DNA from: Escherichia coli
GTDB taxonomy: Bacteria; Pseudomonadota; Gammaproteobacteria; Enterobacterales; Enterobacteriaceae
Length of the DNA: 64,000 nucleotides
Assembly: GCF_003790525.1 (NCBI RefSeq)
Contig: NZ_CP033635.1
Strand: one strand, 5' to 3'
The notes below the pieces were generated by a model, which saw nothing but the letters and a program-made list of their open reading frames with translations, did not search any database and had not been told where the DNA came from. Positions 2,877-57,626 of the stretch are shown piece after piece. The translations under genes and the position numbers were made by a program. Position 1 is the stretch's first letter; every line of letters starts with the position of its first letter.

Positions 2877-3682
2877 TAAGAACGCTGCCAGAGGTGAATA
2901 TTAAAGTCCGTCTGGCAGTCGAACACTTCTTTTGCGGCCAGTGTTTGCCAGACTTCTGACTTCGCACGCCAGGCAAACGGCGTCATCTGCAATAATGCGA
3001 CGGCTTCGTCACCGCGAAGACGCATCGGATAACACAACTCATCACTCTGCTGTAATGTAAAACCTTCCAGTTGTTCTGCATGTGGTGCATGAAGATGTAC
3101 TTCATTGTAAATCAGCCCCTTCAGCTCCATCAAATGTCGCGGTCCCGGCGTGGCAGTAATGACCCAACCGCCAGGCTTCACTACTCGCGCTAATTCTTCT
3201 GCTTTACACGGCGCGTAAATACGTATTATGGCGTCCATACTGGTATCGGAAAACGGCAAACGGTGGCTGGAAGCAACACAAAAAGTGACCTGCGGATAGC
3301 GTTTCGCCGCCGCTTTTATCGCTACCTTCGAGACATCCAGACCAAACGTGGTGATTTCGGGCAGCGCATCGGCAAATGCGTGTGTGTAATACCCTTCACC
3401 ACAGCCAATATCCAGCACCGCCGTGGCCTTTTCATCAAGCCGTTCCCGCAGTTGGGCGACAATTGCATCACGCAGCGGCTGATAATGTCCGGCATCTAAG
3501 AATGCGCGGCGTGCTTGCATCATTTCCGCGCTGTCGCCCGGATCACGAGACCGTTTATGCTGAACGGGCAGCAGATTGACATACCCTTCTTTCGCCATAT
3601 CAAACTGATGTCACTGGGGACAGATATAGCTGTTTTTTTCACGCGAAAGAGGCTGATGGCAAAGTGGACAGGAAAACGACAT
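2873..3682 (-). CDS. rlmA: 23S rRNA (guanine745-N1)-methyltransferase
   Basis: Track ORF extended upstream to ATG at 3682, giving a 269-aa protein with N-terminal MSFSCPLC zinc-finger motif. Confidence 0.9.
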
Positions 3683-3847
3683 GACAACTCCGGCAGGATA
3701 CTAAAGGCCGCAAGTGTAACGCGAATCACGCGGCGGGCAAATATCCGAACGCCAGGAGCGAAGATAAAGCAAAGTAAAAAGCCTCGCATTCGGCGAGGCT
3801 TTATAGCGAGATTGAAGCGTATTCACACTTCAGATCAGTGGATTCGA

Positions 3848-4057
3848 TCAGATAGCTGTTACGTTAACAGCTGCCGGACCTTTCTGGCCGTCCTGAATTT
3901 CGAACTCAACGTTCTGACCTTCAGCCAGAGTTTTGAAGCCATTACCCTGGATAGCGGAGAAGTGTACGAACACGTCTTTGCTGCCATCAGCCGGAGTAAT
4001 GAAGCCAAAACCTTTAGACTCGTTGAACCACTTAACCTGACCTTTAATCTTTGCCAT
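3848..4057 (-). CDS. cspC: Cold-shock protein CspC
   Basis: 69-aa CSD protein, [20 protein letters not shown]. Confidence 0.95.
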
Positions 4058-4069
4058 TTGAAAAATTCC

Positions 4070-4213
4070 TTAGATTGTTTTCTTCGCCCGCAGGCATAAC
4101 ATAGATAAAACTGACACATTACTGCATGAGGCACCAATATAAGGCTCGGCAGAGAAGCGGTATTCAACGTCAACGTGTTTACTCAGGACTTCTTTACTGA
4201 AAATGCCACACAT
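4070..4213 (-). CDS. yobF: Small protein YobF (not in ORF track)
   Basis: Manual reverse-strand translation gives a 47-aa [50 protein letters not shown] directly upstream of cspC. Confidence 0.85.
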
Positions 4214-4882
4214 AAACAGAACTGTACCTCGTTTAACCCGAAATCTGTTATCACATACAACGTTAATTATGGCAAGCCATTTTTAAACATGTCTCGATCA
4301 GACGCACAAATCTCGATACGTCTTCCACTTTTTTTGCACACTTATGCAACGGAATACGCGCCGATATATCATTGTGCTTAACCTTGCCAGTTCAGGCAGA
4401 TACTTAAACTGACGTATTTTCTAACATAGTTCAATAAGTTCAGTTGTTCCATGCCAATGGGAGAAGTTATTACATAGTGCGTGCAATATCACATTTTCTG
4501 CTATGCAATGAATAAAAAGTTATATCACTTTTTCTCATAAAACAGTCAGTTAACGGCCATCAATCACCCCAAAGAGAAGTCAATCGCCAAAGGTATTGTA
4601 AATTTAAAATAAGAAAAATTGATGAATGCGCAAAAAAATCAAGAGAGAAACGTTTCGCTAATAAATAATACCACGCTTAATCACAAATCCGATGTAAACA
4701 TCCTAATAAATTAATGGGCTAAATATCTTTTTCTGATATCCCGTTACGCAAATAAATAATATGATAATTATTTGAAGTCAGACCAGAGTTTTAATTTGAA
4801 GCAGTTGCACCATGACAGTGCGTATAATCAGGATGAATTGAGTAACCCTTCAACGACGGGGTTACTCAAGATTGAGGAAGGA

Positions 4883-6897: not shown

Positions 6898-8271
6898 ATG
6901 CCAAAAGTTCAGGCCGACGGCCTGCCATTGCCCCAGCGATACGGTGCGATATTAACCATTGTGATTGGTATTTCGATGGCTGTCCTTGACGGCGCAATCG
7001 CCAACGTCGCCCTGCCAACAATCGCCACGGACCTTCATGCCACGCCAGCCAGTTCCATCTGGGTAGTGAACGCCTATCAAATCGCCATTGTCATCTCCCT
7101 GCTCTCATTTTCGTTTCTGGGCGATATGTTTGGCTATCGACGTATTTATAAATGCGGTCTGGTCGTTTTTCTGTTGTCTTCACTGTTCTGCGCCCTTTCT
7201 GATTCGCTGCAAATGCTCACCCTTGCGCGTGTCATACAAGGTTTCGGCGGTGCAGCGTTGATGAGCGTTAATACCGCACTTATCCGCCTGATCTATCCAC
7301 AACGTTTTCTGGGTAGAGGGATGGGCATAAACTCGTTTATTGTTGCCGTCTCTTCTGCTGCCGGGCCGACAATTGCTGCAGCAATCCTCTCCATCGCATC
7401 CTGGAAATGGTTATTTTTAATCAACGTACCGTTGGGTATTATCGCCCTGCTTCTGGCGATGCGTTTTCTGCCACCCAATGGTTCTCGCGCCAGTAAACCC
7501 CGTTTCGACCTGCCCAGCGCCGTGATGAACGCGTTAACCTTCGGCCTGCTTATTACTGCATTGAGTGGTTTCGCTCAGAGGCAATCGCTGACATTGATTG
7601 GTGCGGAACTGGTGGTAATGGTTGTCGTTGGTATTTTCTTTATTCGCCGCCAGCTTTCTCTTCCCGTACCGCTGCTACCGGTGGATTTACTGCGTATCCC
7701 GCTGTTTTCACTTTCTATTTGCACATCTGTTTGCTCTTTCTGCGCACAAATGCTGGCAATGGTTTCCCTTCCCTTTTACCTGCAAACCGTGCTCGGGCGT
7801 AGTGAAGTCGAAACAGGTTTACTTCTGACACCGTGGCCGTTAGCAACAATGGTGATGGCTCCACTGGCAGGCTATTTGATTGAACGCGTACATGCAGGAT
7901 TGCTGGGTGCTTTAGGGTTATTCATCATGGCTGCGGGGCTTTTTTCCCTGGTTCTGCTGCCAGCGTCACCTGCGGATATCAATATTATCTGGCCGATGAT
8001 CTTATGTGGTGCTGGATTTGGCTTGTTCCAGTCACCCAATAACCACACCATTATTACCTCCGCTCCTCGCGAACGTAGCGGTGAAGCCAGTGGCATGTTA
8101 GGGACGGCTCGTCTTCTGGGTCAGAGTAGCGGCGCGGCTCTGGTAGCGCTGATGCTAAATCAGTTTGGTGATAATGGTACGCACGTCTCGCTGATGGCTG
8201 CGGCTATTCTGGCGGTGATTGCAGCCTGTGTCAGTGGTTTACGTATCACTCAGCCACGATCCATGGCATAA
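6898..8271 (+). CDS. yebQ: MFS transporter YebQ
   Basis: 457-aa multi-TM product starting MPKVQADGLPLPQRYG; internal start of the 494-aa track ORF. Confidence 0.9.
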   Translation: MPKVQADGLPLPQRYGAILTIVIGISMAVLDGAIANVALPTIATDLHATPASSIWVVNAYQIAIVISLLSFSFLGDMFGYRRIYKCGLVVFLLSSLFCALSDSLQMLTLARVIQGFGGAALMSVNTALIRLIYPQRFLGRGMGINSFIVAVSSAAGPTIAAAILSIASWKWLFLINVPLGIIALLLAMRFLPPNGSRASKPRFDLPSAVMNALTFGLLITALSGFAQRQSLTLIGAELVVMVVVGIFFIRRQLSLPVPLLPVDLLRIPLFSLSICTSVCSFCAQMLAMVSLPFYLQTVLGRSEVETGLLLTPWPLATMVMAPLAGYLIERVHAGLLGALGLFIMAAGLFSLVLLPASPADINIIWPMILCGAGFGLFQSPNNHTIITSAPRERSGEASGMLGTARLLGQSSGAALVALMLNQFGDNGTHVSLMAAAILAVIAACVSGLRITQPRSMA

Positions 8272-8316
8272 AAAAAGCGCGTCGATCAGGACGCGCTTTT
8301 TAGTATTTACTTCATA

Positions 8317-9198
8317 TTACTTCAGGTATTCACCCGTACGCAGAGCTTCAATACGTTTATCCAGTGGCGGGTGAGTCATGAACAACTCACTGAGCGATTT
8401 CGACTTCCCGTTAATGCAGAAAGCCATCATGCTGGTTGCTTCTTGCGGTTCATAGCTGGTTTTCAGGCGTTGCAATGCAGCAATCATTTTCTCGCGACCA
8501 ACCAGTTTTGCTGAACCCGCATCGGCGTGGAATTCACGATGACGCGAGAACCACATGGTGATAATGCTCGCCAGAATACCAAACACCAGTTCCAGAACCG
8601 TTGCAACCGCAAAGTAGATCAGCGGGTTGCCGTTGCTCTCTTCACCTTCATCACGATTTCCGCCCATAAAACCCGCGGCAAGTTGCGCCAGAATACGGGA
8701 AATAAAGATAACGAAGGTGTTCACCACGCCCTGAATCAGCGTCATGGTGACCATATCACCATTGGCGATGTGGCTGATTTCGTGAGCAATTACCGCCTCG
8801 GCTTCATCCGGGCTCATGTTCTGCAGCAAACCAGTGCTGACAGCAACCAGAGAAGCATCACGGCGCGCACCGGTTGCAAAAGCATTGATGTCCGGCGCAT
8901 GGTAGATAGCCACTTGCGGCATAGCGATCCCCGCCTGACGAGCCTGGGTTGCTACAGTATTAACCAGCCAACGTTCCCTTTCGTTACGCGGTTGCTCGAT
9001 CACTTCCCCGCCAACAGATCGTAATGCCATCCATTTGGACATCAGAAGCGAAACGAAGGAACCACCAAAACCGAACAGCAAGGCCATGATCATCAGCCCC
9101 TGAACGCTGCTCGACTGTATCCCTGTCAGGCTCAGTACCAGCCCGAAAACGACCATTACGGCCAGGTTCGTTAGCAGGAAGAGCGCGATTCGCATCAT
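8317..9198 (-). CDS. htpX: Membrane zinc metalloprotease HtpX
   Basis: 293 aa with HEISH zinc-binding motif. Confidence 0.95.
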
Positions 9199-51991: not shown

Positions 51992-53662
51992 TCACCGTAT
52001 TCTCTGAAACAGGCCCCAAATCGTCCCAATGATATTATTCACTGTCATGTTAGTTGTGCATAACATCCATGTACCAAGCATAGGATCGCCAAATAAAAAG
52101 CGGATATCTGTAAGTTTATCCGATGACGACGACACAATAACGGCCTGTCTGATACTATACCCGGGTATTTCACGGGTATTTGTTACCTCATGATTTCGTT
52201 CTATGATCCCCAGAACATAAGACCCCACGGAATAAACACTTCCGACGCTCGCTGGCTGCCCCGGCTGTCCCTGCGGACCTGCCGGGCCGCGTTCACCTGT
52301 ATACCCTCTTGGCCCCTGCGGACCTGCCGGGCCGCGTTCACCTGTATCCCCCTTTAGTCCCTGTGGACCTGCCGGACCGCGTTCACCTGTATCGCCCTTT
52401 GGTCCCTGTGGACCACGCTCCCCCTGGGCTCCCAGCTCTTTCCATTCAGACCAGGGGCCATTACCGGTAAAATTACCAGTAACAGTTCTTACGAACTTTC
52501 GTGGTGGGTTCCAGGTTGTATATTCATGCTGGCAATATCCCCATGCACCAACTCTTACCTGAAGATAACCCGCTCTCTGAATCGGATAATTATTTTCTCG
52601 TGTAGCCCTACTGTCTGATGGCTGATAATAATCACCCTGATCGGTCACTCGTCCCAGTCGGTTCAGATCACCATTCAGCAGTTGTCCACGGGATGACTCT
52701 CCTCTTGGTCCCTGTGGACCTGCCGGACCGCGTTCACCTGTATCGCCCTTTGGTCCCTGTGGACCTGCCGGGCCACGTTCACCTGTATCGCCCTTTGGTC
52801 CCTGTGGACCTGCCGGGCCGCGTTCACCTGTTTCACCTTTTGGTCCCTGTGGACCTCCCGGATCTCCTTTATCCCCCTTAGGGCCTTTTTCTCCTCGCTC
52901 ACCCTTTTCTCCCTTCAGACCCTGAGGGCCTTCCGGACCACGTGCACCTGTTTCGCCCTTTGCTCCCTGTGGACCTGCCGGGCCGCGTTCACCTGTTTCA
53001 CCTTTTGCTCCCTGTGGACCTTCCGGACCACGTGCACCTGTTTCGCCCTTTAGTCCCTGTGGACCTGCCGGGCCGCGTTCACCTGTATCGCCCTTTGGTC
53101 CCTGTGGACCTGCCGGACCGCGTTCACCTGTTTCACCTTTTGGTCCCTGTGGTCCTGCCGGGCCACGTGCTCCTGTTTCACCTTTTGGCCCCTGTGGCCC
53201 GGTAATGCCTCTTTCACCACGAGCGCCGGTATCCCCTTTCTCTCCTCGTGGTCCCCGGGCAGATGCAGCTCGTTTCCGGGCTTCCTCCGCCTCAGATGCC
53301 GCGGACTCTGCTCTGTGCAGTATGGACTGCACCACAGCCTCCAGCTCTGACAACGCCTTCGGATAATAAGGAGCATCTTCCAGCTCCATCAGAAATTTAT
53401 TCAGTGTTCCCGGTGAAGAATCCTCCCTGACCACGATATCTCCCACATACGAAGGACGGTAACCTTCTGTATTGAGTGTCACCCTGTATATTCCTGGCTC
53501 CACATCCATACTGTAACTCCCCGTCTCTTCCGGCATGCCATAAGCCACTGTCGTGGCGATGACTGTCTCGCTGGTTCTCTTCGCTTTCAGCTCAATAATG
53601 CATCCCGGTACCGGTTTTCCGGTTCCGTCCCTCAGCACGCCTGAAATTTTTACAGCCGCCAT
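51992..53662 (-). CDS. stf: Side tail fiber protein (Stf-like) with collagen-like Gly-X-Y repeats
   Basis: 556 aa; N-terminus MAAVKISGVLRDGTGKPV resembles lambda Stf; long GPxGxxGxxG runs. Confidence 0.8.
   Translation of the reverse strand: MAAVKISGVLRDGTGKPVPGCIIELKAKRTSETVIATTVAYGMPEETGSYSMDVEPGIYRVTLNTEGYRPSYVGDIVVREDSSPGTLNKFLMELEDAPYYPKALSELEAVVQSILHRAESAASEAEEARKRAASARGPRGEKGDTGARGERGITGPQGPKGETGARGPAGPQGPKGETGERGPAGPQGPKGDTGERGPAGPQGLKGETGARGPEGPQGAKGETGERGPAGPQGAKGETGARGPEGPQGLKGEKGERGEKGPKGDKGDPGGPQGPKGETGERGPAGPQGPKGDTGERGPAGPQGPKGDTGERGPAGPQGPRGESSRGQLLNGDLNRLGRVTDQGDYYQPSDSRATRENNYPIQRAGYLQVRVGAWGYCQHEYTTWNPPRKFVRTVTGNFTGNGPWSEWKELGAQGERGPQGPKGDTGERGPAGPQGLKGDTGERGPAGPQGPRGYTGERGPAGPQGQPGQPASVGSVYSVGSYVLGIIERNHEVTNTREIPGYSIRQAVIVSSSSDKLTDIRFLFGDPMLGTWMLCTTNMTVNNIIGTIWGLFQRIR
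52250..53290. repeat. Collagen-like Gly-X-Y coding repeats (two blocks) within stf
   Basis: Reiterated cctgtggacctgccgg...cgttcacctgt units; protein shows G-P-X-G triplets. Confidence 0.8.
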
Positions 53663-53720
53663 ACTCGCTCCACAAATAAAAAAGGCGCCATTTCTGGCGC
53701 CCGTATCTGGGTTATAAAAT

Positions 53721-56700
53721 TCAGCTAATCGTGATGCCTGCAGTGGCTTTCTTCATCACAACAACCAGCAAATCGCTGATACTTGCTGAGGGATACCAGC
53801 CATTTACCCACCATGCTGATACCGAAAACTCCAGTGTCATTACGCCACTGCCTGCAGGCATATCAATAACACCCGTGTATATCAGCGTATTATCCAGAGC
53901 CGTTCGGTTATAAATTTCAGCCCCGTTTTTCTTCACTATCAGGCGGCATGACGAATAAGGCTCCTTATCCTTCCGCGGATGTCTGGCCCCCCTGAAAGCC
54001 ACCGCTGGAATAACAATTTGCCGGTCAAACGGCTGATCGTCATAAACCCTGACGGTAATGGTCCCTGATGGCCACGTCTCCGGTGCACGGGAGTCACGGG
54101 GGAAAGCCTTACCCACTGTTTTAACGAGATCGCCTTCAATCTGGTTTGCAGACAGTTTTCCCAGAACCCGACAGTTCTCGTTAATCGTGACGTTGTTGAG
54201 CGAGCCCGAATTCGCATTCACGTTACCACTGATATCGACATTTTTCGCCGTCAGACGCCCGTCCGGTGTCAGGGAAAATGCCGGGGGATTGCCGGATGAG
54301 GTGATACTCACCGCAAACAGTCGCTTCATGAAAACATCATTCATGAACAGCTGATCACCCTGAGCCACAAACAAAGGTGTTGTATTGCCATTTTCCGGGT
54401 TAATCATCGCAATACGATCTGCCTGCATCAGGATCTGACTCTGAATTCCGTCAGACGTATTTTCGATTCCGGCACCAATACCTGCAATATAGAGACGTCC
54501 ATCCCGTGTCTGCTGCAGCTTCACAGCCCACATGCTGTTCAGGTTCCGGCGCGTGTCCTCCTGAACTTTCTGTATCTGCTCAATGCTGGCATTCCAGGAT
54601 CCCAGTTTTTTATCCGTGCTCTGTTTGATCTGACTTCCCTTATCATCAACATACTGTCTGATCTGCGCTATCTGTCGGCTGTTCTCCTCCGTGCTCCTGC
54701 TTACTGTCTGCCGGATTTCGCTTCCCATCCTGTCAACTTTTCTGTCAACTTCCGCAATGGCCATTGACTGTTCACCGCTCTTTTTCGCCACAACAGTACT
54801 TATTTGCGCACTTTTATCATCAACATACTGCCTGACCTGCGCTATCTGTCGGCTGTTCTCCTCCGTGCTCCTGCTCACTGTCTGCCGGATTTCACTGCTC
54901 ACGCTGTCAACTTTCCTGTCGACTTTCGCAATGGCCAGCGACTGTTCACCGCTCTTTTTCGCCACCAGTTCCGTTATGCTGTTTTCAGACGCCGTGATTT
55001 TTTTCGTCACCTCTGCGATATCACGCTCCGCACGCTGCCTCACATCTTTCTCCAGCTGCGTCATTTCGCGGTTAATCTCATTCTCCAGTTGCTCAACTTC
55101 AGTGCGCCGTGCAGAGGCATCAATGCGTTCATTGATCTCCCGTCCCAGATGCGTTTTATTTATCGCCCCCCTGAAAAAATTAAGGTAAGCGGCAGGATCA
55201 TTACTCGGTTGACCGACTGCCTCCACGAATGCCGATTTACCGACAGTGTTAACACTGCGGATATAAAAGTAATAATCATGGCCAGGTTTAATATTCTGGC
55301 CGGAGACAAGCCACTGACTTCCGGTACCAAGATAACGGGCTGTGGTTTCAACCTGCCTGATATCGGTAATCCGCTTTTCCGAAAACCAGAACTCAAACTG
55401 TACCGTCGGATCATAAACCGCAAGATGCGGCGTGGCGGTTATCTGAAAATAGCCCGGCGTCAGCTCAATCCGCGACGGCGCTGCCGGTGCGGCAATCCGG
55501 AACGATACCGACGCCGGGTCTCCCTGCTGCCCCCGGGAATTTACTGCCCGGACTGTCAGCCTGTAGTTCCCCGGCGCCAGCTGCCTGAAGCGGTATGTGG
55601 TTTCCGTCGTCCGGGCCGTGCTGACCAGCCGCTCACTGCCATCATCCGCGGCCACGGTCAGGCGAAGCAGGAAGCTCACGCCCTTCACCACCTTCGGCGT
55701 GTCCCAGCGGGCCAGTACCTGATACTCCCCGCTGTCTGCGGTGACTTCGACAGTCAGGTGCTGCACCGCTGGCGGCGTGACACCATTCACCGTGCCGCTC
55801 TGGTCGCCGTCAAAGTGTGCCCCGTTATCCACGATGGCCTCTTTTTCCGGTACATGCTGCACGGCAGTGATGGCATACGTGCCGTCGTCGTTCTCACGGA
55901 TACTCACGCAGCGGAACAGGCGCTGGCGCAGCGTCGGCAGCTTCAGCCCCCACACGCTGTACTCGGCAACGCCGTCAGGAACCCGGCTCACTTTTACCTT
56001 CACGCCGTCGGTGACGGACTGAACCTCCACGCTGACCGGATTGCCACTTCCGTCAACCAGGCTTATCAGCGTGGTACCGGAGGATGGCAGCTTGATTTCA
56101 CGGTCGAGCGTCAGCGTCCGGGTCTGGCTGTTCACCGTCAGCACACGACCACCGGTGCTGATACCGGCATAGTCATCATCACAGATTTCAATGACATCGC
56201 CCGGTACATGGCGAAGCCCTTCAGCACCCACGCTGAAATCCACGGTCTGCGTCTCCAGCAGTTCTGTTTTAATCAGCCACAGCCCGGCGCGGTGTGCCTG
56301 CCCCCGACTGGTACAACCAAAGGCATCCATCTTCGTGACATTACGACCGTAACGGGCAATGGCCTGCGTATCTTCAACAAGCTCTGTCGCCGTCTCCTGG
56401 CCGTTATCCGGGTCACTCCAGTTCACCTCAACGGCATTATGGCGGTCCTTCAGGGCGCTGAAGCTGTAGCGGAACGGCGCGCCATCATCCGGCATCACCA
56501 CATTACTGCGGTTATAGGTCCACACCTTATCCGACTGTCGGTCCTGCACGAACGTCAGCGTCTGCCCGTTCCATACCGGCATACAGCGCATCGCCGAGCA
56601 GAAATCACTGAGCACATCCCACGCCTTACGCTGCCTGGTCAGCCAGGCATTACAGGTGATGCGCGGCTCCGTGCCACCAGAGCCGTCCGGCACCGACTGG

Positions 56701-57626
56701 TCGCAGTACTGGCCGATGACATACAGCGCCCATTTGTCCACATCCGCTGCGCCAACACGTTTCCCCATGCCGTAGCGCGGGTGGGTCAGCATATCCCACA
56801 GACACCAGGCCGGGTTATCGCTGTATGCCGGTTTAAACGTTCCGTCCCAGATACCGCTGTATTGCCGCGTCTGCGGGTTATAATTCGACGGCACCTGCAG
56901 AATGCGCCCGCGAAAATGATAATTACGGCTCACCTGCTGGCTGCCGAACTGCTCCGAATCCACCTGCACACCGACCAGTGCCGTGTTCGGGTAGCACTGT
57001 TTCACATCGATGATTTCGGTGTATGACGACCAGAGCGTTTTGTTCTGCAGCTGGTCTGTGGTGCTGTCCGGCGTCATCCTGCGCATCCGGATACTGAACG
57101 GGCGCGGCGGCAGGTTACCCACCACCACCGAGGCCAGATACTGCGAGGTGGTTTTGCCCTTAATGGTGATGTCTTTTTCCGTTAACCAGCGGCCGTTACG
57201 CTGTATCTGAACCAGCAGGCGGACTTCCGACGGATTCCGGTCCCCCTTTGAGGTGGTTTCCACCAGTGCCTGCACACCGAAGGTCAGGCGCAGACGGTCG
57301 ATGTTTGCCGACGTGATGGTCCGGGTAATCGGCGTGTCGTACTTCACTTCCGTACCCAGCACCGTCTCGGAGCCGGAGGATTCAAATCCCTCCGGCGGTG
57401 TCTGCTCCTGCTCACCGGCACGGAACACCACCGTGACGCCGGAGATGTTGGTATTCCCCTCACTGTCCAGCACCGGCGTACCGTTCAGCAGCACGCTTTT
57501 TAATCCATCCACCGGTCCTTGTATCGGCCCTTCGCTGATGACATCGATCACACTCAGCAACTGCGTGGATTTCAGATTGTCCTTCGCTTCGCGCGGGGTA
57601 TGCCCCTTACTGCTGCCTTTACCCAT
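53721..57626 (-). CDS. J: Tail tip host-specificity protein J
   Basis: 1301 aa; N-terminal 800 aa closely resemble lambda J ([28 protein letters not shown]). Confidence 0.95.
54650..54975. repeat. Imperfect tandem duplication of about 168 bp (56 aa) inside J
   Basis: Two copies of the [18 protein letters not shown]...[27 protein letters not shown] coding unit. Confidence 0.8.

Follow-up and report, generated by a model that had tools for sequence, protein, structure and literature searches.

A probable side tail fibre with a kinked collagen-like shaft and a putative pyocin-type knob in an Escherichia coli prophage

Introduction

Side tail fibres determine the adsorption speed and host choice of temperate phages. 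One class of them, the collagen-like prophage tail-fibre proteins (EPclPs, for EHEC prophage collagen-like proteins), has been known since 2012, together with its domain logic, its conserved kink and a length polymorphism in multiples of three residues (Ghosh et al. 2012, PLoS One 7:e37872, PMC3368898). Recombinant EPclA is trimeric and forms a true collagen helix with a Tm of 42 C, and its PfC domain was established experimentally as a trimerisation module (PMC3368898). EPclA and EPclB, from prophages of E. coli O157:H7 (e.g. ECs2717 and Z1483), combine a PfN domain, a 109-116-aa Ala/Ser-rich PCoil domain and collagen that has Pro in position X and charged residues in positions X and Y, and they close with a PfC-type end (GLFQRIS). 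Only one collagen domain is present in EPclA, whereas EPclB, which is used by short-tailed Stx phages, carries a Pf2 repeat between its collagens. An example of the EPclC type, ORF-401 of the P-EibA prophage in E. coli strain ECOR-9 (AF151091), does without the long PCoil and has two collagen domains, the first interrupted by G-X-P-G-G-P-X-G; a Pf2 repeat (PF03406) and a helical segment lie between them, and the protein ends in LFQRI.

Two other described systems share parts with the fibre reported here. Lambda Stf (Ur-lambda; PDB 9e7m and 9mgh; PMC12617516) is expected to act as a trimeric lateral fibre that speeds adsorption. Its collar is followed by a long coiled coil, Pf2 repeats and a hinge, and its tip, which resembles T4 gp37, binds OmpC. 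Residues 92-129 comprise a flexible linker and the first part of the proximal coiled coil (PMC12617516). R-type pyocin fibres (PA0620; PDB 6cl6, 6ct8 and 6cl5), which belong to a contractile particle, carry knobs in tandem on a beta-helical or coiled fibre. We describe here a gene in a 64,000-nucleotide stretch of E. coli DNA (contig NZ_CP033635.1; hereafter the window) whose product is an EPclC-like member of the collagen-like class. It carries a probable pyocin-type knob in place of the usual Pf2 repeat, a difference that we regard as only a modest novelty.

Results

A lambda Stf-type collar ahead of a collagen shaft

The fibre gene is a single intact ORF of 556 codons on the minus strand that occupies exactly positions 51992-53662 of the window, stop codon (51992-51994) included; the protein domains, the J and DUF4376 genes and the hairpin given coordinates below lie on the same strand. 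PHROG 366 ('tail fiber protein') matches the protein (E = 3.5e-113), and the annotation of orthologues from complete E. coli genomes reads 'prophage tail fiber N-terminal domain-containing protein'. Of the features of the EPclP proteins, a PF08400 PfN domain, Gly-X-Y domains, a GDPGGPQG kink, a PfC-like cap and a location in a tail module are present.

The Stf-type collar, or PfN domain (aa 1-92; 53387-53662), is the predicted point of attachment to the tail. In Pfam, aa 3-133 score 134.8 bits (cut-off 26.6; E = 2.4e-39) with PF08400, 'Prophage tail fibre N-terminal', and a CarboxypepD_reg-like match lies at aa 6-83. The solved collar of Ur-lambda Stf (chain Ta of PDB 9e7m) aligns with aa 3-92 at E = 1e-28. 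The first 136 residues align by BLASTP to lambda residues 2-129 only, with 50% identity over 128 aa to lambda orf-401, the N-terminal part of Stf (E = 2e-41), which bears out the original prediction of a lambda Stf-like N-terminus. Identity to the PfN domain of ORF-401 of P-EibA is higher, at about 78% over aa 4-136. A linker and short Ala/Glu-rich helical segment (aa 93-136; 53255-53386) follows, still within the PF08400 match and aligned with lambda Stf residues 92-129; it is predicted to form a short trimeric coiled coil ahead of the collagen. Like ORF-401, and unlike EPclA and EPclB, the fibre has no long PCoil domain.

The likeness to lambda Stf is thus one of collar, linker, start of the helical stalk and position downstream of J. 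Where Stf goes on into a long Pf2-bearing coiled coil and a gp37-like tip, the present protein has collagen, knob, collagen and a PfC-like domain, and Pfam finds no Pf2 repeat (PF03406) in it, although ORF-401 of P-EibA and P0039 do match that model. The shaft was correctly foreseen as Gly-X-Y sequence in two blocks, and the runs lie at aa 137-323, with one register break, and at aa 411-470. Block 1a (45 triplets, aa 137-271; 52850-53254), recognised by run detection, by Pfam Collagen and as a 45-bp tandem array, would span about 39 nm as a triple helix. Block 1b (17 triplets, aa 273-323; 52694-52846; run detection) and block 2 (20 triplets, aa 411-470; 52253-52432; run detection and Tandem Repeats Finder) would span about 15 nm and about 17 nm, respectively. 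Together these uninterrupted runs make 82 triplets (45+17 and 20; Pfam Collagen, E = 4e-41), and no other run of at least six Gly-X-Y triplets occurs in any frame of the whole 64-kb window. At 187 + 60 aa, the collagen is longer than that of ORF-401 (117 + 75).

Residue preferences across the 82 triplets (X = Pro 46%, Asp/Glu 37%; Y = Arg/Lys 44%, Gln 20%, Thr 17%) are close to the published EPclP values (X = Pro 48%, Asp/Glu 36%; Y = Arg/Lys 31%, Gln 15%, Thr 20%; PMC3368898, Table 4). The 45 triplets of block 1a are separated from the 17 of block 1b by GDPGGPQG (aa 266-273; 52844-52867), a one-residue break of the Gly-X-Y register that corresponds to the conserved G-X-P-G-G-P-X-G interruption of the family and is a predicted kink or hinge. 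The same kink is found in P0066, P0074, P0084 and P0118 and in the cultured phage PhiR5_1. A recent import of this segment from another fibre class was considered and rejected: the PhiR5_1 counterpart is identical at only 68 of 96 nt (71%), with many synonymous differences, which marks the kink as an old feature of the family and not the scar of a recent recombination.

A probable pyocin-type knob between the collagen blocks

Between the two blocks lies a globular domain of 87 aa (aa 324-410; 52433-52693) whose AlphaFold2 model is confident (pLDDT 91.6). Its best Foldseek matches in the PDB are the R2 and R1 pyocin fibres 6cl6, 6ct8 and 6cl5 (probability 1.00, TM 0.62-0.68), although sequence identity to these knobs is 22-26% and the Foldseek E-value of 8e-3 is marginal, above the 1e-3 line. 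What the two systems would share is the fold of the domain and its place as a bead threaded on a presumably trimeric fibre; the present fibre has a single knob with collagen on both sides instead of the tandem knobs of the pyocins, and no sequence-family model connects the two. Neither the knob nor the C-terminal domain is matched by any model in Pfam (E up to 10) or NCBIfam, and in PHROGs the knob gives a weak match to a tail-fibre family and the C-terminal domain none.

The knob recurs in 280 representative clusters (E <= 1e-3) at one to five copies per protein, and eight proteins sampled from these clusters have tail-fibre-associated Pfam domains or none. It also occurs in 60 cultured phage genomes, mostly, among the matches listed, in genes annotated as tail fibres, although no knob of more than 60% identity was found in phage records. 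Megablast of the fibre gene against 50,697 phage records gave no match, and in tblastn only the N-terminal domain and the collagen were matched, in EPclC-like fibres of cultured and Stx phages. Both the knob domain and the one-residue kink are features absent from the original prediction.

A PfC-like C-terminal domain

The last 86 residues (aa 471-556; 51995-52252), which include the motifs YSVGSYV, GTW, a Cys and the terminal GLFQRIR, form a PfC-like domain. With hhalign it aligns over 83 columns to PfC-like C-termini from five further prophage fibres of the collagen-like class (probability 96.7%, E = 4e-10), and EPclA and EPclB have an end of this type too; identity to the C-terminal domain of ORF-401 is about 25-30% only. 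PF06820 (Phage_fiber_C) gave no match, even in other family members, which suggests that the model was missing from the Pfam copy used. When this domain by itself was the query of a word-indexed search, all matches were fragments from the same allele family, and a profile search added other PfC classes, mostly as fragments at contig ends. The AlphaFold2 model is all-beta with low confidence (pLDDT 63), and Foldseek found no meaningful match to it (best E = 0.7, TM 0.25). Trimerisation probably starts from this domain, which is also predicted to bind a receptor on the cell surface.

Repetitive coding DNA and polymorphism among orthologues

The collagen-coding DNA is highly repetitive, as originally predicted. 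Tandem Repeats Finder reports a 45-bp period with 11.3 copies at 52705-53197 and 3.3 copies at 52267-52414, and repeat detection finds 13 in-register copies. We counted 26 maximal exact direct repeats of 20 nt or longer, up to a length of 58 nt, whereas 300 synonymous-codon permutations that keep protein and codon usage give 0.7 ± 0.9 such repeats and a longest repeat of at most 35 nt. The DNA is therefore more repetitive than the amino-acid repeat demands. The two copies of the 58-nt repeat (52708-52765, upstream, and 52357-52414) lie 351 nt (117 codons) apart, in frame, and bracket the knob domain. Units of the block-1 array are only 76% matched and can be told apart by synonymous and amino-acid differences. 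Two ORFs on the plus strand within the collagen tract (52618-52881 and 52942-53205) appear to be by-products of the repeats and neither has any support, and a 'median 15 places per genome', considered as a sign of many recombination partners, was discarded since off-register alignments within one repetitive gene had been counted separately.

Orthologues, defined by the same N-terminal, middle and C-terminal domains, range from 457 to 616 aa in complete E. coli genomes, in steps of five triplets (45 bp). Block 1 has 19-44 triplets where it is unbroken and 35+17 to 45+37 in kink-bearing alleles, block 1b has 17, 32 or 37 triplets in the complete-genome orthologues, and block 2 has 10-21. The repeat number thus varies in both blocks and is not invariant among homologues. 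All length variants seen are in-frame multiples of three codons, mostly of 15 codons, which suggests selection for the translated product. The complete genome of strain TUM1886 has a knob-less in-frame allele, found twice, in which the two collagen blocks are fused, and P0034 is knob-less as well, with a different junction. Both alleles are consistent with recombination across repeats such as the 58-nt pair. Of what the original prediction expected from these repeats, length variation is borne out by the 45-bp steps and recombination between blocks by the TUM1886 allele, whereas exchange with other fibre classes stays conjectural, the one segment compared, that of PhiR5_1, being only 71% identical in its DNA.

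A prophage tail module next to yecD

Upstream of the fibre gene lies the gene for the central tail fibre or tip attachment protein J (1301 aa; 53721-57626; Pfam Ig_J, FNIII-A_GpJ, Phage-tail_3, Phage_Tail_Tip and Ig_GpJ_C), and beyond it are the tape measure, L, K and I genes, which places the fibre in a prophage tail module. The window holds the tail end only of this prophage, which adjoins yecD as in LH50-c and TUM1886. Past about 54.3 kb, the window matches the tail gene cluster of the TUM9803 prophage at 98% identity; among the genes annotated in that cluster are J, L, the tape measure, a C40 peptidase and a tail assembly protein. The 58-nt gap between J and the fibre gene contains a predicted terminator-like hairpin with a T-run (53683-53702; eight pairs, six of them GC; a consensus match only), and after it a GGAG stands 6 nt ahead of the fibre ATG.

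Beginning 14 nt past the fibre stop is a gene for a 191-aa DUF4376 protein (51402-51977; PF14301, E = 2e-20; PHROG 1141, 'tail fiber protein', E = 1.4e-62) that is 57% identical to ORF-191A, which has the same position in P-EibA. Where lambda holds orf-194, annotated 'tail fiber assembly', no lambda-type assembly gene follows directly downstream here; the neighbour matches only DUF4376 in Pfam and is set apart by annotation. From its position, it may serve in fibre assembly as an accessory protein or chaperone, which is a guess because the protein is DUF4376 and not of the lambda Tfa family. The order of J, fibre, DUF4376, a YadA/Eib-like adhesin gene and a small HTH gene is that of P-EibA (GenBank AF151091), except that the lom gene between J and the fibre gene of P-EibA is absent. 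The same layout is found in the cultured phage PhiR5_1, on which a literature search returned nothing relevant.

Discussion

We consider it probable, at roughly 85%, that a lambda-like siphovirus prophage lies by yecD in the E. coli chromosome and that this gene encodes its side (lateral) tail fibre. From the sequence, three chains would join into one fibre, each running from the PfN domain (aa 1-92) through the short helical segment (aa 102-136) into the collagen shaft. The shaft would extend for about 39 nm of collagen to the GDPG-GPQG kink, for a further 15 nm or so to the knob, and for 17 nm more to the PfC-like domain. By analogy with lambda Stf, such a fibre would be expected to speed the first, reversible step of adsorption. 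The DNA that codes for the shaft consists of 45-bp (15-aa) units and contains long exact repeats, so that units could be gained or lost in frame, and the knob deleted, by slippage or unequal recombination, giving rise to polymorphism in fibre length and modules among prophages.

That the ORF, although intact, is a silent relic, either of a cryptic prophage or as a dispensable fibre that is never assembled, appears unlikely. In laboratory lambda, stf is frameshifted and plaque formation is kept. Side fibres of lambda are non-essential (PMC12617516), IS66 elements have broken the fibre or the gene next to it in related prophages, and the window shows only tail genes of the prophage. However, an ORF of 1671 nt, 738 nt of which are slippage-prone repeat, is still in frame here, J, DUF4376 and the tail genes that reach to the window edge are likewise intact, and the in-frame spectrum of length variants points to selection for the product. 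We give similarly low weight to the idea that the repeat number itself is an artefact, with near-identical 45-bp units collapsed or multiplied during assembly. A large number of homologues in the databases are 'partial' collagen-like proteins cut off at contig edges, from which we conclude that short-read assemblers break in the collagen tract, and the gene has exact repeats of up to 58 nt. The exact 556-aa protein was not found in a collection of 15 billion proteins, so that the repeat count of this assembly is unreplicated. Against an artefact, the units are distinguishable, the ORF is uninterrupted, and the 45+17/knob/20 arrangement falls within the complete-genome range, with block 1a = 45 and block 2 = 20 triplets recurring in three other complete genomes.

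It is very improbable that the protein is instead a bacterial surface adhesin of the Scl/Lcl collagen-like type, carried as lysogenic-conversion cargo and not as part of the virion. The NCBIfam models SclA, Lcl and SclB match with E-values of 2e-57 to 8e-48, and the next cargo gene encodes a YadA-like adhesin. These scores nevertheless fall far under the curated cut-offs (195.6 against 400, 171 against 500 and 163.3 against 325 bits), and the matches cover essentially the Gly-X-Y region only, with the best stretches within aa 108-326. Neither a hydrophobic N-terminal segment nor an LPXTG motif is evident on reading the translation, whereas the N-terminus is an Stf collar and the gene directly follows J in the tail module.

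A more speculative proposal, which we think doubtful, builds on the side-fibre reading and treats the collagen repeats as a built-in recombination cassette. The knob is flanked in frame by exact repeats as long as 58 nt, so a population could switch it on and off, toggling between knob-bearing and knob-less fibres while adjusting length in steps of 15 residues (about 4.3 nm). The TUM1886 and P0034 alleles would then be products of the switch and not rare accidents, and reach and receptor use would be tuned to the O-antigen or capsule thickness of the hosts.

As a side fibre of the EPclC-like type, the protein leaves existing knowledge of its class unchanged. The locus provides a clean natural case in which a repetitive collagen tract yields length variants and module loss with the reading frame kept, and it illustrates why collagen-fibre genes are misrepresented by short-read assemblies. 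Such phages also carry virulence cargo among E. coli, here the YadA/Eib-like adhesin.

Domain architecture of the collagen-like side tail fiber

The side tail fiber gene corresponds exactly to a single minus-strand open reading frame (ORF) at 51992–53662, with 556 codons and a stop. The original prediction described its N terminus as lambda Stf-like, which is correct. The protein start (MAAVKISGVL...) aligns with that of lambda Stf, and Pfam places PF08400, "Prophage tail fibre N-terminal", on aa 3–133 (E 2.4e-39). In laboratory lambda, stf is frameshifted and orf-401 is its N-terminal part; BLASTP aligns aa 1–136 of the window protein with orf-401 at 50% identity across 128 residues (E 2e-41). 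A PDB sequence search matches aa 3–92 to the Stf collar domain of Ur-lambda, the form of lambda with side fibers (9e7m chain Ta, E 1e-28).

The central part of the protein matches the Pfam Collagen repeat (E 4e-41) and, as predicted, its collagen is arranged in two blocks. Block 1 consists of uninterrupted Gly-X-Y runs of 45 triplets (aa 137–271) and 17 triplets (aa 273–323), and block 2 of 20 uninterrupted triplets (aa 411–470). Together these 82 triplets make up 44% of the protein, and whichever frame is read, the 64-kb window has no further run of at least six Gly-X-Y triplets. The lone register break in block 1, a one-residue kink of the form GDPG-GPQG (aa 266–273), is not an error: it is the G-X-P-G-G-P-X-G interruption conserved among the fibers described by Ghosh et al. 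2012, and the same break recurs in PhiR5_1, a cultured phage, and among unrelated alleles. The X position is occupied by Pro (46%) and Asp/Glu (37%), and the Y position by Arg/Lys (44%), Gln (20%), and Thr (17%), close to the preferences published for EPclPs, the collagen-like prophage tail-fiber proteins of Ghosh et al. 2012 (PMC3368898). Tyrosine, which that study reports as missing from EPclP collagen domains, occupies one X position in block 2 (GYT, aa 453–455, window 52300–52308) and is kept in orthologs.

The DNA encoding these blocks is highly repetitive, as had been claimed. Tandem Repeats Finder detects a 45-bp period in 11.3 copies at 52705–53197 (76% matches) and in 3.3 copies at 52267–52414 (90% matches), and a repeat search recovers 13 in-register copies of the 45-bp unit, whose 15-residue translation is of the form GPAGPQGPKGETGER. 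As a null for DNA repetition, we generated 300 synonymous-codon permutations within the gene, keeping protein and codon usage. At a minimum length of 20 nt, the gene contains 26 maximal exact direct repeats, against 0.7 ± 0.9 in the permuted genes; its longest is 58 nt, and none in the permuted genes exceeds 35 nt. The two copies of the 58-nt repeat, one closing block 1 and the other opening block 2, are in frame at a distance of 351 nt and thus bracket the non-collagen middle domain.

This middle domain (aa 324–410, hereafter the knob) matches no Pfam or NCBIfam model. With a threshold of E ≤ 1e-3, an exhaustive HMMER search of 1.84 billion representatives returned 280 clusters, whose proteins often have 2–5 copies; in the eight sampled, the Pfam domains present are Phage_fiber_2, Peptidase_S74, Phage_tail_C_2, or GDSL-lipase, or there are none. 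By tblastn, the knob is present in 60 cultured phage genomes at ≈40–45% identity, and among the matches listed most of the phage genes bearing it are annotated as tail fibers. A 37-sequence alignment gave a confident AlphaFold2 model (pLDDT 91.6), whose best PDB fold matches are the R2/R1 pyocin fibers (6cl6, 6ct8, and 6cl5; probability 1.00, TM 0.62–0.68, E 8e-3), followed by the phage AS12 tailspike and T4 gp34. The predicted fold makes a good, if not overwhelming, case for a pyocin-type fiber knob.

The C-terminal domain (aa 471–556) likewise matches no family model in Pfam or NCBIfam. Profile–profile comparison aligns it over 83 columns with the C termini of five collagen-like prophage fibers (probability 96.7%, E 4e-10), and the landmarks YxVGxF/Y..., PGTW..C, and a terminal GLFQRI are common to the window protein and other such fibers. 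In EPclA, the PfC domain is a trimerization module that renucleates the triple helix (Ghosh et al., PMC3368898). The monomer model of aa 471–556 is all-beta and of low confidence, and a fold search with it gave no usable match.

Allelic variation in repeat number

The aspS-ruvB-znuA-lpxM flank identifies the window as E. coli: it is 97.7–98.7% identical to the eight genomes listed, and 5417 of 5426 genomes contain 80% or more of it. A close DNA relative of the fiber gene occurs in only 23 complete genomes. We compared the window allele (556 aa; 45 + 17 triplets on either side of the kink in block 1, 20 in block 2) with seven copies from complete chromosomes. The fiber of strain TUM9803 has 529 aa (35 + 17 and 21 triplets), those of LR-31 and LH50-c each have 601 aa (45 + 32 and 20), that of Ch1 has 616 aa (45 + 37 and 20), and that of strain 135 has 586 aa (45 + 32 and 15). 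TUM1886 encodes a 457-aa protein in which a single fused collagen tract (55 + 23 triplets) replaces both blocks, without a block 2 or middle domain. The AR_0085 copy is truncated, with 55 + 43 or more triplets and no block 2 present; its annotation is that of an incomplete pseudogene without a C terminus, and an IS66 element adjoins it. Intact copies range from 457 to 616 aa, and steps of five triplets, or one 45-bp unit, predominate. Orthologs with the same three non-collagen domains in a 5.8-billion-cluster protein set, many of them from short contigs, have block 1 lengths of 19, 24, 29, 34, 39, or 44 triplets and block 2 lengths of 10–21.

The knob-less protein is unlikely to be an assembly artifact, because it is identical in two different prophages of the complete TUM1886 genome (NZ_CP128970.1; WP_264831588.1 at 3382–4755 of locus L008 and 7069–8442 of locus L010). 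Both copies are accompanied by the same DUF4376 protein, which suggests that a prophage was duplicated or that gene conversion took place between the two. A second knob-less sequence, the homolog P0034, has a different junction and comes from a 1-kb contig. The exact 556-aa window sequence has no match in a 15-billion-protein collection, which fits a hypervariable tract and leaves the repeat count of the present assembly unreplicated. Many homologs are "partial" collagen-like proteins at contig ends, indicating that short-read assemblies break in the collagen tract.

The allele series is most likely the footprint of in-frame gain, loss, and fusion of units, which the long exact DNA repeats would make easy. 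The repeats had been proposed to favor both length variation and recombination with other collagen-like fiber genes. Length does vary in frame among alleles. Exchange with other fiber classes may also occur, but the one segment compared with a different collagen-like class is only 71% identical in DNA sequence.

Relation to known fibers and a proposed mechanism

The window fiber has the Stf-type N-terminal domain (PfN), collagen composition, conserved kink, PfC-like end, and tail-module location of an EPclP. Like members of subtype EPclC, it is without a long PCoil domain, but it carries the knob where the described EPclC example has a Pf2 repeat between its collagen domains. We rejected a full lambda Stf, with which only the collar and stalk start are common; in lambda, moreover, a lambda-type assembly gene lies downstream of stf, whereas the downstream gene differs here. 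An Scl/Lcl-type bacterial adhesin was also rejected, with scores far under the curated cut-offs. Ghosh et al. (PMC3368898) had earlier described recombination between prophages and fiber lengths differing by multiples of three residues. The original observation is therefore real and correctly interpreted but unexceptional: the gene is a new allele with a minor variation in architecture.

The side fibers of Ur-lambda start from a collar of twelve StfN domains at the gpV/gpM junction; each linker trimer continues into one of the four fibers, which bind OmpC and speed adsorption 10–30-fold without being essential (PMC12617516). By analogy, aa 1–92 would dock on the tail as StfN does, and aa 102–136 would form a short coiled coil leading into a collagen triple helix. 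At 0.288 nm per residue, the predicted shaft would run ≈39 nm to the kink, 15 nm to the knob, and a further 17 nm to a trimeric PfC-like head, which, with or without the knob, would contact a putative surface receptor. A possible assembly role for the DUF4376 protein is suggested by gene position only.

Prophage context

A 1301-aa J protein is encoded upstream of the fiber across a 58-nt gap (53663–53720) that contains GGAG and, on the coding strand, a terminator-like hairpin (GGGCGCC-AGAAAT-GGCGCC) with a T-run. DNA farther upstream in the window shares 98% identity with the tail genes of the TUM9803 prophage; among those annotated under the match are J, L, the tape measure, a C40 peptidase, and a tail assembly protein. 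Starting 14 nt downstream of the fiber is the gene for the 191-aa DUF4376 protein, followed by those for a 538-aa YadA-like trimeric autotransporter and a 151-aa sigma-like HTH protein. The prophage adjoins yecD, as in LH50-c and TUM1886. Apart from lom, the gene order is that of P-EibA, the prophage of E. coli ECOR-9 (GenBank AF151091; J, lom, orf-401, orf-191A, eibA, orf-156A), whose ORF-191A shares 57% identity with the DUF4376 protein and whose ORF-401 is the collagen-like EPclC prototype of Ghosh et al. (PMC3368898). PhiR5_1 shares this layout (J, lom, collagen fiber, assembly protein, adhesin), and as it is a cultured phage, collagen fibers of this kind occur in viable phages.

The window has no lom between J and the fiber, a gene found there in LR-31, strain 135, P-EibA, and PhiR5_1, and it is without the pair of small ORFs (225 and 663 bp) of TUM9803, Ch1, LH50-c, and TUM1886. 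The J gene (53721–57626, minus strand) encodes 1301 aa compared with 1132 aa in lambda. The sequence of J at about aa 843–1016, which has only a weak Pfam Apolipoprotein match and is partly encoded by a 174-bp tandem repeat (1.9 copies, 54640–54965, 91% matches), suggests an extra helical segment.

Just beyond the end of the DUF4376 gene is a strong hairpin (51363–51388; nine pairs, six of them GC) with a T-run on the plus strand, so that stem-loops bracket the fiber and DUF4376 genes; in the P-EibA record, orf-191A and eibA are separated by an annotated stem-loop. IS66-family (ISCro1-like) insertions recur in or beside the fiber/DUF4376 genes of related prophages (loci L001, 8704–11986; L006, 3466–7504; L007, 1–2096 and 5698–8310), and insertions seem either to target this portion of the tail module often or to meet relaxed selection there.

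The YadA-like cargo gene (49386–51002, minus strand) contains a 99-bp tandem repeat (5.6 copies, 49808–50364, 98% matches) encoding 33-aa coiled-coil units. Its product resembles EibA only in the last 118 aa, the membrane anchor (57% identity), and the passenger domain differs. Because the gene at this position, where intact, spans 1128–1548 bp in related complete genomes, the 99-bp repeat could be variable in copy number as well.
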